From an uncultured archaeon (lineage in GTDB: Archaea > Asgardarchaeota > Thorarchaeia > Thorarchaeales > Thorarchaeaceae): a stretch of DNA of 23,093 nt. A program made the translations under genes and the position numbers. Where the stretch lies: NCBI GenBank assembly GCA_964354495.1, contig CAYHAA010000026.1, positions 1-23,093 on the forward strand, read 5' to 3'. Numbering within the stretch: position 1 is the stretch's first letter; every line of letters starts with the position of its first letter. The notes beneath the pieces were generated by a model, which had not been told where the DNA came from, did not search any database, and worked only from the letters and a program-made list of their open reading frames with translations. Below, piece by piece: positions 3,149 to 7,829 of this stretch.

Positions 3149-4429
3149 ATGAAAGGCCTGAAAGATGTATGGTTGGTTGACTATGCGCGTACCCCATTCT
3201 CGCGGTCACGTCCTGAAAAGCCAGAAACTGATGTATTTGGTGAGATCAGGGGAGACGAGCTCCTCGCGCGATTGCTCATGAAGTTCTTCGACGGATCATT
3301 AGCGAAAAAAGGAATTGAGAAGAAAGACATAGAAGAGATCACTGTCGGGGTGGCTGCCGGAGTTCTTGAGAACTGGACCTACGGAGGGAAACTTCCCGCA
3401 ATCATGTCAGGATTTCCTCATCATGTGCCATCTCTCTTCATCGATCGCCAGTGTGGATCTGCAGGCTCTGGAATGCATATTGGCATCATGGAAATCATGA
3501 CAGGATTCAGCAAGATCGTGCTGTCTACTGGTTTTGAGCATATGACCCGAGTAAGAGGAAGAGGAGTCGAGCCCAACTATTCCATTGGTGATGAGAATTC
3601 GGAGTTCTACAGGCCGGATATAGATCTCAATACGATGTTCAACATGCTACAGACCGCCCAGAAACTATACGAGGAAGAGGTTCCTACTTTCACCAAGGAG
3701 GACATGGACAAATTCGGTGTCAGAAGTCATAATTTGACCATCAAGAATCAAGAAGCTGGATGGTTCAAAGGCGAGATTATACCTCTACTAGGACACACCT
3801 CGGGTAATATTGCTGAACCCATGGTAGTGGATAGAGATATGAACGCCAGGGCATCAACACTTGAGAAGGTCTCGACCCTGCCAAGAATATCGACACCATT
3901 CTATCTTGACAAGAATGGTGGGAAAGAGGGCTATATCAAACGAGAGGGGACAGCTGAGGGAGTCATTACGGCAGGCAATGCCTCGCCACTCAATGCGGGC
4001 GCCACTGCCGCAGTTCTTATGGAGGCAAAGGAGGCAGAGAAGAGGGGCATAGAGCCTATGGCACGGATCGTTTCCATGGGTTGGGCTGGAGTCGACCCCA
4101 CAGTCATGGGTCGTGGGCCTGTGCCGGCCACCAAGAAAGCCCTAAAGCATGCAGGACTAAACGTCGAGGACATTGACTACTGGGAGATAAATGAGGCCTT
4201 CAGTATTGTAGCCCTGAACTGCATGGACAAACTGAATATTCCTGAGGAGAAGGTGAATGTCATGGGGGGCTCCATCGCCATCGGACATCCTCTGGGTTCA
4301 ACCATGATTAGGTTGACCGGGACACTGGCAAGAACCCTCAAGGATAACAAGGCGAAATACGGGGTCGCCAATGCCTGTGTTGGTGGTGGACAGGGGGTTG
4401 CCACGGTCCTTGAGAACTTGAACGCATAA
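3149..4429 (+). CDS. Acetyl-CoA C-acyltransferase (thiolase)
   Basis: Catalytic motifs RQCGS, NEAF, GHPLG and CVGGGQG. Start moved from 3071 to the in-frame ATG at 3149 (MKGLKDVWLVDYARTPF), which matches typical thiolase N-termini. Confidence 0.95.
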   Translation: MKGLKDVWLVDYARTPFSRSRPEKPETDVFGEIRGDELLARLLMKFFDGSLAKKGIEKKDIEEITVGVAAGVLENWTYGGKLPAIMSGFPHHVPSLFIDRQCGSAGSGMHIGIMEIMTGFSKIVLSTGFEHMTRVRGRGVEPNYSIGDENSEFYRPDIDLNTMFNMLQTAQKLYEEEVPTFTKEDMDKFGVRSHNLTIKNQEAGWFKGEIIPLLGHTSGNIAEPMVVDRDMNARASTLEKVSTLPRISTPFYLDKNGGKEGYIKREGTAEGVITAGNASPLNAGATAAVLMEAKEAEKRGIEPMARIVSMGWAGVDPTVMGRGPVPATKKALKHAGLNVEDIDYWEINEAFSIVALNCMDKLNIPEEKVNVMGGSIAIGHPLGSTMIRLTGTLARTLKDNKAKYGVANACVGGGQGVATVLENLNA

Positions 4430-4462
4430 GAGAGTCCATTTTCAATCAGGACAGAGAAGTGA

Positions 4463-4485
4463 TGGCGCCGAGGACGAGATTTCAA
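4463..4485 (-). repeat. Displaced copy of the tRNA-Ser 3' end (att-like direct repeat)
   Basis: The minus strand reads TTGAAATCTCGTCCTCGGCGCCA. 4463-4482 matches 7184-7203 at 19/20 nt. There is no 5' T-stem or other tRNA portion upstream of it. Confidence 0.85.
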
Positions 4486-4680
4486 GCTGGCTAACATTTA
4501 TCTCAGAAACTAGTAGATATTCTAGGACGAATGCTTTCAGAAACAGAGTCAAGTCTGGTTTGAGAATGAATAATCACCTGTGAAAGAGCTGGTAGTTGAC
4601 CAACTTCGAGTTCTTCATTCTTACCTCTTGATTTCCCAGAATAGATATATTCGATTGCCATCTTTCCAAATACAGGGGCA

Positions 4681-6843
4681 ATGATAATGCTACGTGGTTC
4701 GCGTGCCTATCTTTTGTTTTTGTTAATTCTTGTTGTTTCACTTCTTTTTATACAAAAAGTGGACCCAGTATCGGACCAGACACTGTCTACTGAATATGAA
4801 ACTCCTGATTTCATCCCTGTGCTCTCTGAATATACCAACCATAGTCCAATAGAAATCTGGTCCAATCAGGACTTCGAGGATCAGGGTTGGCCTGGTAATG
4901 GGACTGCTGATAACCCCTACATCATCGAAGGCTTGAACATTACATCTGATGGGAGATGTATCACAGTTTTCGATACTACTGTCTACTATAGAATTACAAA
5001 CTGTCGCCTCTCATCATTCGGCGATCGTAGCAATGCTGGAATTCGAACTCAGAATGCCTCATATGGTTCCATTAGCAATTGCATCATTGATACGCATAGT
5101 GAAGGCATTCTCTTAGGAGAAAATTCAAATTACTGCAATGTGACCAACACGATTTGTTACAACAATCTGTTTCTTGGAATTCAGATCAATGGGGACCACT
5201 GCTTAGTCTGTAACAATACTTGCTTCGGCAATTTCATTGGGATTATCGCAGGTGGTAATCAGTACTGCATAGTCTATGAAAATAATTCAACTTTGAATCA
5301 TGGTGGAATTTCAGTATCTTCAAGTCAATTTACCTATGTCCACAACAACACGGTCGTTCGAAATTTCGAGCGCGGTCTACAGGTTGGTTTCTCTGAGTAT
5401 TGCATAATTGAGCAGAACTACGTTTTCAAGAGTGGTACTGACGGGATCTTTCTAGACCATGCAGAAAATTGTACATTCATCGAAAATACTGTCCTAAATA
5501 ACACTGAACGTGGATTCTATATTGAAGATACGATGTACTGCGAATTCCAGTCTAATCTTGCAGCAAACAATACATGGGAAGGTTTCTGGTTGTATGATTC
5601 TGATTCTAACACCTTTATAGAGAATACTGCAACCCAGAACTCAGGCGCAGGAATTGGTATGAATATATTCTGCTCCGGTAATAGAATGTATCTCAATGAG
5701 CTCAGTCTGAATATCATTAATAATGGTCAGGACTATTCAGGCGCAAACTATTGGGACGATGGAGTTTCAGTTGGAAATTACTGGGACGACTATAATGGGC
5801 GTGGATCTTATGCTGTGGGAGGATCAGGCGGCGCTTATGATAACTACCCCTTCTCCTTGGGCGTTATCCCTTACCTACAGCACCCAGAGGACATTGTTGT
5901 TGAGTACGGTTCCTCTAGCAATTCCATATTCTGGGATGCATATGATGTTGACCCGTCTACGTATCAGCTTTACATAGATGAGGTATTTCAGTTCTCAGAC
6001 GCTTGGAATGGTTCACCCATTGTCATAGACATTTATGGACAAGGAATTTCAAACCATAACTATACACTTGTTGTCGCGGATTCTCTAGGAAATTCGGCGA
6101 CTGATACAGTCTTTGTCACAGTACTTGATACAATTGTCCCCTCGATTGATGATCATTCCAATGTCGTTCTCGAGTATGGATCAACTGGTAACACGATAAC
6201 ATGGATCGCCAATGATCTTGATCCATCTAATTACGAGCTATATGTTAATGGAGAATTACAACTCACAGACACATGGAGCAATTCATCCATAAGCATCGAT
6301 ATCGATGATCTTGCGATCTCAGTCTACAATTTCACAATAGTAGTAGCAGATGGCTCAGGTAATTCTGCGTCTGACACCGTCCTTGTTACTGTACAGGACA
6401 CCATTTCACCCCTGGTCGAAAGCCCTTCTGACATTGAATTCGAAGAAGGAGAAACTGGACACAATATCACATGGGTTTCATTTGACCTAGACCCAGGGAC
6501 TTACATCATCTATAGAAATGCGGTAGCTATCGTAAATGAAGTCTGGAACACATCTCAAATCTCCATTTCATTAAACGGACTCTCTGCAGGAACATACAAT
6601 TTCACACTGGTATTGTTTGATAGTAGTGGTAATACCGCAGTGGACTATGTTATTGTGACAGTTGTCACTTCTACCTGCACATCATCAACAGCGACAAACC
6701 CACCCTCAACAACACCAACCAATCCTGACGAAGTCGATTCGCAAATGATTTTGGTGATAGCTGGACTAGGTAGCGTCATTGCGGTGGTTGCGGTCATCGT
6801 TGTCATTATGTTTAGGAAGGGAAAAGATGATGGCATGCCTTAA
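4681..6843 (+). CDS. Cell-surface protein: signal/anchor, NosD-like right-handed beta-helix, three Ig-like repeats, S/T linker, C-terminal TM anchor
   Basis: Hydrophobic N-terminus. Asn-ladder repeats (NxxxxNxxxGxxL). Three ~85-90 aa repeats ending GNSATDTVFVTV, GNSASDTVLVTV and GNTAVDYVIVTV. Then TSSTATNPPSTTPT, and a TM segment followed by RKGK. Confidence 0.85.
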   Translation: MIMLRGSRAYLLFLLILVVSLLFIQKVDPVSDQTLSTEYETPDFIPVLSEYTNHSPIEIWSNQDFEDQGWPGNGTADNPYIIEGLNITSDGRCITVFDTTVYYRITNCRLSSFGDRSNAGIRTQNASYGSISNCIIDTHSEGILLGENSNYCNVTNTICYNNLFLGIQINGDHCLVCNNTCFGNFIGIIAGGNQYCIVYENNSTLNHGGISVSSSQFTYVHNNTVVRNFERGLQVGFSEYCIIEQNYVFKSGTDGIFLDHAENCTFIENTVLNNTERGFYIEDTMYCEFQSNLAANNTWEGFWLYDSDSNTFIENTATQNSGAGIGMNIFCSGNRMYLNELSLNIINNGQDYSGANYWDDGVSVGNYWDDYNGRGSYAVGGSGGAYDNYPFSLGVIPYLQHPEDIVVEYGSSSNSIFWDAYDVDPSTYQLYIDEVFQFSDAWNGSPIVIDIYGQGISNHNYTLVVADSLGNSATDTVFVTVLDTIVPSIDDHSNVVLEYGSTGNTITWIANDLDPSNYELYVNGELQLTDTWSNSSISIDIDDLAISVYNFTIVVADGSGNSASDTVLVTVQDTISPLVESPSDIEFEEGETGHNITWVSFDLDPGTYIIYRNAVAIVNEVWNTSQISISLNGLSAGTYNFTLVLFDSSGNTAVDYVIVTVVTSTCTSSTATNPPSTTPTNPDEVDSQMILVIAGLGSVIAVVAVIVVIMFRKGKDDGMP

Positions 6844-6844
6844 A

Positions 6845-7152
6845 GCAAACATAGAGGCGTCTTTTCCAATCACTGTCCTGCATCACGAAGGCCACATGAC
6901 ACCGGGGACAGACCACCACCATCTCACCAGCAGCTAGGTCCTGCTTGCCAGCTCTGCGGAGGGTCTTCCATTGACCACCGTAGCTCCAGGAGGCTCGATC
7001 TCGACAACTTTAAACCCAATGAGCCGACCAGCAAGAGATACATCGAATTAATTGTCTTCCAATAATGGAGCTCCACTAAGATTCCATCTCAAATTATCTG
7101 TTAGACGATCAAAGTCAAAGTAGTGTTTGCTATCGACTGGTATTAAGACAGG
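6845..7152 (-). pseudogene. Degraded gene: CDC48 N-terminal subdomain 2-like region followed by a RING-like zinc-finger remnant
   Basis: Manual translation gives VLIPVDSKHYFDFDRLTDNLRWNLSGAPLLEDN*FDVSLAGRLIGFKVVEIEPPGATVV (TAA at 7050-7048). A shifted frame then gives KQDLAAGEMVVVCPRCHVAF, and another shift gives *LEKTPLC. No start codon after the tRNA. Confidence 0.55.
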
Positions 7153-7183
7153 TCAGCGATTATTTGTCAATCTAAGAGAGAAA

Positions 7184-7332
7184 TGGCGCCGAGGATGAGA
7201 TTTGTTCGATTCCACGAGATGTAGACTTCTTTGAACTCATGCGTGACAAGCACACCGGTTGCCTTGGATACCAGCTTCCGAAGAAACCGGTTTTCAAGAC
7301 CGGCGCCGTAATCCGAGCTTGGCTACCTCGGC
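7184..7332 (-). tRNA. tRNA-Ser (anticodon UGA) with two introns: 7261-7292 (32 nt, position 37/38) and 7202-7230 (29 nt, position 58/59); CCA encoded
   Basis: Acceptor stem GCCGAGG/CCTCGGC with discriminator G and CCA. Anticodon arm CCGGT-CTTGAAA-ACCGG. Variable arm T-GTG-CTTGT-CAC-GC. T arm ATGAG-TTCAAAT-CTCAT after splicing. Mature length 88 nt. Both introns are flanked by bulge-helix-bulge-type motifs. Confidence 0.93.
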
Positions 7333-7355
7333 CCAGCCTGCCTCCGTTGGAAACG

Positions 7356-7364
7356 CCTTTTAAG
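7356..7364 (-). promoter_or_regulatory. Putative TATA box for tRNA-Ser in the 65-bp divergent tRNA/archease spacer
   Basis: CTTAAAAGG on the minus strand ~25-30 nt upstream of the tRNA 5' end, preceded by a purine-rich BRE-like run. Confidence 0.45.
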
Positions 7365-7397
7365 CTTCTTGTCTTGAGTGCCATTGGCGACTAAAGA

Positions 7398-7829
7398 TTG
7401 GAAAGAGGATTCAGATTCCACGAGCACACGGCTGATATCATCATCGAGTGCTGGGCTCCATCCTTAGTGGAGGCTTTTGAGGAGGCTGCAAGAGCAACAT
7501 TTGAAGTAATCCTCGATCCAACGACAGTTGCCACATCAGAGACTGTTGAATTGTCTGTTCTAGGAATCGACCTGGAGGAGCTACTTGTCGAGTGGATTGG
7601 AACTCTCATCGCATTGATAGACATCAATGACCAATTCTACTCCAAGTTCGAGGTTGATGAGATCTCTCACGAATCAAACGGTTACAGTCTCAAAGGAAGA
7701 GCATTCGGCGAAAGGATTGACCATCATAGACATGTTACACGGACAGAGGTCAAGGCTATGACCTACGCTGACATGAAGATAATTGAGCGCACAGGTAAGA
7801 CAACACTCTGGTTCACTTTGGACCTTTAG
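7398..7829 (+). CDS. Archease (RtcB tRNA-ligase cofactor)
   Basis: N-terminal FHEHTADI and C-terminal EVKAMTY motifs. 143 aa, TTG start. Confidence 0.95.
   Translation: MERGFRFHEHTADIIIECWAPSLVEAFEEAARATFEVILDPTTVATSETVELSVLGIDLEELLVEWIGTLIALIDINDQFYSKFEVDEISHESNGYSLKGRAFGERIDHHRHVTRTEVKAMTYADMKIIERTGKTTLWFTLDL

Follow-up and report, generated by a model that had tools for sequence, protein, structure and literature searches.

An att-type scar carrying the unsplit T-loop beside an intron-bearing tRNA-Ser(UGA) gene in a genus of Thorarchaeaceae

The window analyzed here is an entire contig of 23,093 bp (from a genome labelled G000), which carries on its minus strand (7332-7184) the only tRNA-Ser(UGA) gene in that genome. 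As parsed manually and by comparison with 20 homologous alleles, this gene is interrupted by two introns and thus consists of exon 1 (7293-7332), which comprises the acceptor, the D arm, the 5' anticodon-stem strand and the anticodon loop up to position 37; a 32-nt intron at the canonical 37/38 site (intron 1, 7261-7292), which has a CUUG/CAAG central helix; exon 2 (7231-7260), which runs from position 38 through the 3' anticodon-stem strand, the long variable arm and the 5' T-stem strand to T-loop positions 54-58; a 29-nt intron at position 58/59 of the T-loop (intron 2, 7202-7230), termed type A; and exon 3 (7184-7201), which comprises positions 59-76 including an encoded CCA. Intron 2 possesses the full hBHBh' motif: a central helix is formed between G53-U54-U55-C56 and a GAAC near the intron end; two 3-nt bulges (AA/A and AA/A, with a slash at the cut) contain the splice sites; and the inner hairpin has 5 bp. 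Since this is the sole tRNA-Ser(UGA) gene in the genome, its introns are presumably spliced out. G000 encodes two EndA paralogs, which appear consistent with an endonuclease of the heteromeric type; this arrangement matches the type that is reported to cut non-canonical introns (PMC5829648).

The gene is missed both by ARAGORN and by Rfam (at gathering thresholds). When run with its intron option, ARAGORN predicts 33 tRNAs in the whole G000 genome and none on this contig; for annotation this means that a doubly interrupted tRNA-Ser(UGA) escapes standard tRNA finders. Many of the 33 predicted tRNAs in G000, which is 97.7% complete, bear introns, and intron-rich tRNA sets are known from some archaeal lineages (PMC11291895). 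An archease gene (7398-7829) lies 65 bp upstream of the tRNA gene in divergent orientation, an arrangement that is kept in all 21 of the loci compared. Archease is a cofactor of the tRNA-splicing ligase RtcB, and its location beside a doubly intron-bearing tRNA gene is probably a coincidence. As for the 37/38 intron (7261-7292, minus strand), its 5' part, AACCGGTTTCTTCGGAAGC, is the same as positions 38-43 together with the variable arm in the intron-less allele of G018 (L059), G014 and G022; intron 1 of G042 (L071) runs on with ATGAG, which corresponds to the 5' T-stem strand; and other types of intron 1 are likewise similar to the variable arms of other alleles. From these resemblances the 37/38 intron gives the impression of a trapped duplication of part of the gene's 3' half, perhaps the collapsed product of integration or recombination.

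Some 2.7 kb beyond the tRNA gene, and on the same strand, lies a displaced copy of its 3' end (4463-4485, minus strand), which reads TTGAAATCTCGTCCTCGGCGCCA and corresponds to tRNA positions 54-76 with the T-loop in unsplit form. For comparison, the 3' end of the gene itself (7184-7203, minus strand) reads AAATCTCATCCTCGGCGCCA, and the spliced tRNA, from the T-loop to the end, reads TTCAAATCTCATCCTCGGCGCCA. The last 20 nt of the copy are identical to 7203-7184 at 19 of 20 positions, the inner member of this repeat consisting of exon 3 and the two bases with which intron 2 ends (7202-7203). In the window there are two occurrences of the 20-mer, as compared to none in 100 shuffles. Over its full 23 nt, the copy matches the spliced tRNA at 21 positions and the genomic sequence (AAC...) at 19; the differences from the tRNA are C56G and a G64 where the resident gene has A64. 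The original prediction, that the copy resembles the T-loop of an intron-less gene and that the resident gene has intron sequence AAC in place of TTC, is thus upheld by the genomic sequence, and the resemblance extends to other copies in the genus. Its caveat, that the two extra bases (TT) could arise by chance about 1 time in 16, is likewise sound for the G000 window alone, where the chance is roughly 1 in 11 to 1 in 16 (the T frequency on the relevant strand of the island being 0.29).

The short flank between the displaced block and the stop codon of a thiolase gene (4430-4462, minus strand) is host-side DNA, homologous to the flank beside displaced copies in G020 (contig C230) and G003; indeed, window positions 4300-4482 are 81% identical to G020:C230 over 183 nt. 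When the gene and its displaced copy are compared with each other, there is no flank similarity upstream of position 54, and similarity downstream of CCA is marginal (p ~0.03). Homologous copies bounded by T54 exist in relatives. The copy at 4463-4485 is an att-type scar of integration into a tRNA gene. Two other readings of the repeat find no support: the 3' half of a split tRNA, as an intact gene is present; and an integrase gene split in the manner of SSV, as no integrase-like ORF crosses either repeat.

Between the scar and the tRNA gene lies a 2.7-kb inserted island (4486-7183), the GC content of which (0.39-0.44) is below that of its flanks (0.47-0.55), or 0.40 as compared to 0.49 outside; it is lineage-specific, still compositionally foreign and devoid of a recombinase gene. 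Its single intact gene (4681-6843, plus strand) encodes, according to its ORF and Pfam matches, a 720-aa secreted surface protein with right-handed beta-helix, NosD and PKD repeats and a C-terminal transmembrane anchor. This cargo gene is one of a very large family that is present in many copies in the genus, and its best homolog (G020:C75, 68% identity) lies at an unrelated locus; it was therefore rejected as an identifier of the element. The remainder of the island contains frame-broken gene fragments (6845-7152, minus strand), recognized from their ORFs, within which a core of about 100 nt (6870-6981) has counterparts, with 82-89% identity, at unrelated loci in 7 other genomes of the genus. 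This core is better conserved than the majority of coding sequences are among these species, and it may represent either part of a highly conserved gene or a small element of mobile or RNA type. A search for contigs encoding the G000 locus gave only sequences 100% identical to it, and thus neither population variants nor empty sites of the G000 species. For window positions 4300-7400 no sequencing run is listed.

To judge whether the TT is more than chance, the locus was gathered from the 27 other genomes of the genus (28 with G000). Upstream of the tRNA gene, genes for archease, an RNA methyltransferase and a PFL-like enzyme are syntenic throughout; downstream of it is a patchwork, with islands that differ from species to species. 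Displaced copies, which were searched for using the last 18 nt of the tRNA (a probe that excludes the T-loop), follow the gene, on its own strand, at no fewer than 12 of 21 loci, and many of these loci have a tandem pair. A native flank (ATTTTGCCGC...), which is followed by a nitroreductase gene, begins straight after the tRNA in G011 and G023 and is found instead after a displaced copy in G009, G017 and G022; this difference in position constitutes an empty-versus-occupied-site pattern. Judging from these comparisons, the 3' end of tRNA-Ser(UGA) is a recurrent integration hot spot in the genus.

How far the repeated block extends can be read from the copies themselves. TT occurs at positions 54-55 in 9 of 17 independent copies, as compared to about 1.5 expected (binomial P from 5e-6 to 5e-5); T55 is found in 13 and C56 in 12 of the 17, whereas position 53 agrees in only 4, which is at background. 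Among the young copies, six show TTCAA or TTCGA without a mismatch, and another three (in G009, G014 and G042) begin further to the right. From the TT frequency together with the background level at position 53, it follows that the att block runs from T54 to A76. By this alignment, then, the block contains the whole T-loop in unsplit form, and it is within this block that the 58/59 intron falls.

The 58/59 intron is present in 13 of the 21 tRNA-Ser(UGA) alleles in the genus and absent from 8. All 13 of the intron-bearing alleles have the hBHBh' motif, with a GUUC/GARY helix and bulges of the form AA/N and AN/A, and the inner hairpin shows compensatory changes. The 29-nt (type A) and 30-nt (type B) introns align in register and have their loop and 3' end in common; because they do so, with compensatory changes in the stem, they are, to judge from the alignment, members of one old intron family with a single origin. 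The intron occurs in both major clades of a tree of flanking proteins (five proteins, 1,820 columns), as well as in the nearest relatives of G000, namely G017 (the nearest in terms of downstream-flank identities) and G002. The G000 intron is identical to each of the other type-A introns at 19-23 of 29 positions, for which reason the notion that it is closest to the introns of clade II was rejected.

The alleles themselves are incongruent with the flanking-gene tree. Outside its introns, the mature tRNA of G000 is identical at 87 of 88 positions to that of G001 and at 86 of 88 to that of G042, both of which are in the other clade and lack a T-loop intron, yet at only 79 of 88 to that of its nearest relative, G017; conversely, G007 (L064) and G024 (L067) have near-identical flanks and unrelated alleles. 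Such incongruence indicates, as far as sequence comparison goes, that alleles at this locus frequently are replaced or recombine, so that the ancestral state of the G000 gene can be read from its relatives only weakly. Among the loci with near-identical flanks (L064, L067 and, in G015b, L065), the alleles differ in both introns, in the variable arm and in the T-loop. Across the alleles, the presence or absence of intron 1 is found in every pairing with that of intron 2. Scars accompany 9 of the 13 intron-bearing and 4 of the 8 intron-less alleles (Fisher p = 0.65, a descriptive value, as the lineages are related).

The G020 locus is a mirror image of that in G000. Two of its contigs, C394 and C230, overlap inside an ORF for a Tag glycosylase and together give the order intron-less tRNA gene, 0.7-kb island, displaced block and thiolase gene, the flank on the thiolase side being the one homologous to window positions 4300-4482. 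Here it is the displaced block that contains an intron: starting at T54, it aligns through an entire, decayed type-A intron to the gene of G009. Because an intron-bearing block has been displaced, the intron appears to be older than at least one insertion. Moreover, the 5' T-stem strand of the resident G020 gene (GCGAG) fails to pair with the CTCAT of the displaced block, which implies that the whole resident gene, rather than its 3' block alone, was replaced.

Searches for an enzyme that might have mediated these insertions gave the following picture. No integrase, whether intact or remnant, was found in the G000 island or in related islands, nor any PF00589 tyrosine recombinase anywhere in G000; PF00589 matches occur in 9 of the 28 genomes of the genus, never on contigs that carry att copies. 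Scanning viral contigs for the 23-mer yielded no matches, and scanning metagenomes for the 23-mer without its preceding G yielded 12 contigs, which correspond to further scars and to tRNA-Ser isoacceptors with a 53/54 intron; no integrase adjoins any copy on these 12, and no free element with an intron-bearing attP occurs among the viral or metagenome contigs scanned. The island ORFs of relatives, when compared to Pfam, PHROG and NCBIfam, revealed cargo and defense-like genes only. In three islands the first gene after the tRNA (L067:8190-9167 in G024, L034:740-1612 in G015a and L064:7061-7336 in G007; homolog at G000:C18:38823-39266) encodes a protein of about 300 aa with two HTH motifs and Cys-cluster repeats, which matches PHROG HNH endonuclease families (best E 3e-16) but shows neither a nuclease nor an integrase domain of Pfam and is a candidate for a protein of mobility.

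The order of events that is tentatively preferred, with a probability judged to be slightly short of even, is that the 58/59 intron was already present when the island arrived, that the T-loop form of the scar was borne on the attP of the element, and that strands were exchanged 3' of the intron. In this scenario DNA would have entered by site-specific recombination, presumably catalyzed by a tyrosine recombinase, at the 3' end of a tRNA-Ser(UGA) gene that already bore the old BHB intron; the exchange would have used the 18-20 nt that follow the intron; the 23-mer would represent the outer junction, that is, an attR-type scar, the inner edge of which (TTGAA) would be the arm of an attP that mimics an uninterrupted T-loop; and the integrase would since have been lost, leaving behind the cargo, namely the beta-helix surface protein. 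In an integration product, the part of the displaced copy on the 5' side of the crossover belongs to the inserted DNA; consequently, the TT reports on the attP of the element and not necessarily on the host gene. That TTGAA belongs to the attP arm is most likely: its G56 cannot be compatible with a working T-loop and is seen again in G020, in another copy that is unrelated, which fits an arm carried by an element. Copies in T-loop form also lie beside intron-bearing genes in G000, G013, G015a, G022/G015b and G017 and on metagenome contigs L073 and L079. Further support for an intron that preceded the island comes from the small divergence between copy and gene (1 of 20 positions) and from the still foreign composition of the island. 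On the other hand, a boundary at T54 is what one would expect if the 7-nt T-loop were the crossover segment, in which case a 58/59 intron should block exchange; and the copy's CTCGT T-stem strand, which is rare (3 of 21 alleles), is the same as that of the nearest relative, G017, and therefore points to a host origin for position 64 of the copy and to a crossover 5' of it. Also counting against this order of events are the lack of an integrase in every island and the lack of the intron in the closest alleles to that of G000 (in G001 and G042).

These same observations are what lend weight to the opposite order, in which the element entered an intron-less allele via an intact T-loop and the 58/59 intron came later, for example with an intron-bearing allele from a relative, so that it now splits the att core and would block re-integration or excision. 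The T54 boundary fits a T-loop crossover; the copy, with the rare G64 among its matches, agrees with the mature 3' block of G017 at 22 of 23 positions; the intron, which 13 alleles have and 8 do not, is polymorphic, the alleles nearest to that of G000 being without; and replacement of alleles clearly occurs at the locus. Nevertheless, this order is regarded as unlikely, though with a probability that is by no means small: the intron family is older than the species, being present in G017 and G002; a later arrival would be needed in at least six lineages having scars in T-loop form; the displaced block of G020 bears an intron; introns and scars are uncorrelated; and the topology of the junction places the TT on the side of the element. 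The G000-G020 mirror symmetry, in which both displaced blocks start at T54, suggests yet another possibility, along the lines of Sugahara 2012: recombination at the 5' edge might exchange the whole T54-A76 block of the host for that of the element, in which case the intron-less host block in G000 was displaced by an element that delivered the intron, while in G020 the reverse occurred and the intron was removed. The same intron family does occur in a second tRNA-Ser isoacceptor with a shared T arm (L032), and integration-mediated intron gain has been proposed for the tRNA-Thr of Caldiarchaeum (PMC3293823). Such an exchange would, however, have to use a very short crossover segment (the 5-nt TTCAA) and would require a later mutation to account for G56 in the G000 copy; in G020 the entire gene appears to have been replaced, given the unpaired GCGAG and CTCAT; and among the viral and metagenome contigs scanned there is no element with an intron-bearing attP. 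It is thus considered quite improbable.

It might also be that the TT in the G000 copy is due to chance and that the true repeat is confined to the 20 nt which the copy and the genomic sequence have in common. After all, only two bases discriminate between the models, with a T frequency of 0.29 TT is expected about 1 time in 12, the intervening base is mismatched (G for C), and the three young copies in G009, G014 and G042 begin further right. This is already unlikely, with a very low probability when set against the 9 of 17 independent copies having TT (about 1.5 expected), the six young copies with a perfect TTCAA or TTCGA and the identical TTGAA in a second copy. What the scar does show is that a single att block exists within the lineage both with and without the intron, and that the two forms recombine; it gives no date for the intron.

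In this light, the proposal within the original prediction that the intron arrived after the element, exactly at the att core, stands in part: the intron indeed lies inside the att block, T54-A76; the timing, however, is not supported, given the position of the TT on the element side, the age of the intron family and the mirror case in G020. The intron is polymorphic, 13 alleles having it and 8 lacking it, and the alleles most like that of G000 (G001 and G042) are intron-less. No association between intron presence and scars emerged (9/13 versus 4/8 scarred, p = 0.65). An intron that was ancestral and universal in the lineage was to have spoken against a late arrival: the family has turned out to be old, yet not universal, as 8 of the 21 alleles are without it. 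So, too, were remnants in relatives that match the intron end: the intron-containing block in G020 answers to this in part.

A broader and distinctly unlikely scenario is that of an arms race over T54-A76, in which elements recombine in the T-loop while blocks with or without an intron are exchanged between hosts and elements or are swept in by allele replacement; integration would then add or remove the intron, and an intron within the overlap would both lock islands in place and block new arrivals. If this is true, then the genus would offer a natural experiment on the Randau-Soll hypothesis and on how integration drives tRNA introns to be gained and lost.

The kind of feature described here is already known, inasmuch as integration scars at tRNA genes, introns within attB and intron change linked to integration have all been described (PMC4090602, PMC3293823). 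Archaeal integrative elements of the SSV1 and pNOB8 types insert into tRNA genes, generating attL and attR direct repeats of the 3' part of the tRNA (PMC3293823, PMC4090602). Like the scars of such elements, those of the genus lie downstream of an intact gene, share its orientation and reproduce part of the tRNA 3' end, with DNA of foreign composition in between, empty sites in relatives and scars in tandem; unlike them, the G000 and related islands lack an integrase, the cargo in G000 is a surface protein, and the G000 repeat is short (20-23 nt), with an intron of the resident gene inside the repeated block.

In sublocation, the G000 scar resembles one class of tRNA integration sites, in that its block of identity runs from the first T-loop base to the 3' end of the tRNA. 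Williams reportedly defined this T-loop class in 2002, with the 7-nt loop as the crossover segment. The G000 T-loop differs in being split by an intron, which is not expected to be tolerated. Introns and split genes were proposed by Randau and Soll in 2008 to protect attB within tRNA genes from integration (as summarized in PMC4090602). In G000, an intron indeed lies within the att block of such a tRNA, one proven to be a hot spot of integration; yet, in the genus, intron-bearing alleles are scarred at least as often as intron-less ones (9/13 versus 4/8), and no protection is evident.

A further parallel is intron gain through integration of a mobile element, as modeled for the tRNA-Thr of Caldiarchaeum by Sugahara 2012 (PMC3293823). 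There, as here, alleles with and without an intron occur at one locus, tRNA fragments have been displaced, and a tie between integration and a change in intron state is proposed; the Caldiarchaeum case, however, involves a 5' fragment and a recombinase gene, whereas the loci examined here have 3' blocks and no recombinase and exhibit both configurations, that is, with the intron either in the gene or in the displaced block.

The questions of whether introns protect tRNA genes and whether integration creates or removes introns have been under discussion since proposals of 2008-2012, with few natural test cases. The G000 window alone contributes two ambiguous bases. The value lies instead in the comparative set: a single tRNA gene having more than 20 alleles with or without an intron and more than 20 scars bounded by T54. 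Because this set includes the reciprocal configurations of G000 and G020, the question could be tested given an intact element and its integrase.

Several minor features of related loci deserve mention. At the same tRNA, a 4.1-kb island on G015:C78 (L034:1702-4153), which has a perfect att copy in T-loop form as its boundary, is a small defense island with genes for an OLD-like AAA/TOPRIM protein and for a protein with a TIR domain. A 655-bp island that is common to G013:C2 (L054) and G019:C293 (L038) encodes a protein of the LigT-like 2H phosphoesterase/2'-5' RNA ligase family. The nitroreductase gene (TM1586-type) is bracketed by att copies in L063 (G022), L065 (G015b), L060 (G014) and L073 and is probably the cargo of an older island within a tandem array. 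Finally, other tRNA-Ser isoacceptors that have the same T arm and acceptor end harbor introns at 53/54 (L039, L045, L051, L075, L077 and L078), at 51/52 (L041 and L046) and at 58/59 (L032), positions that seem to gather around the 5' boundary of the common att block.
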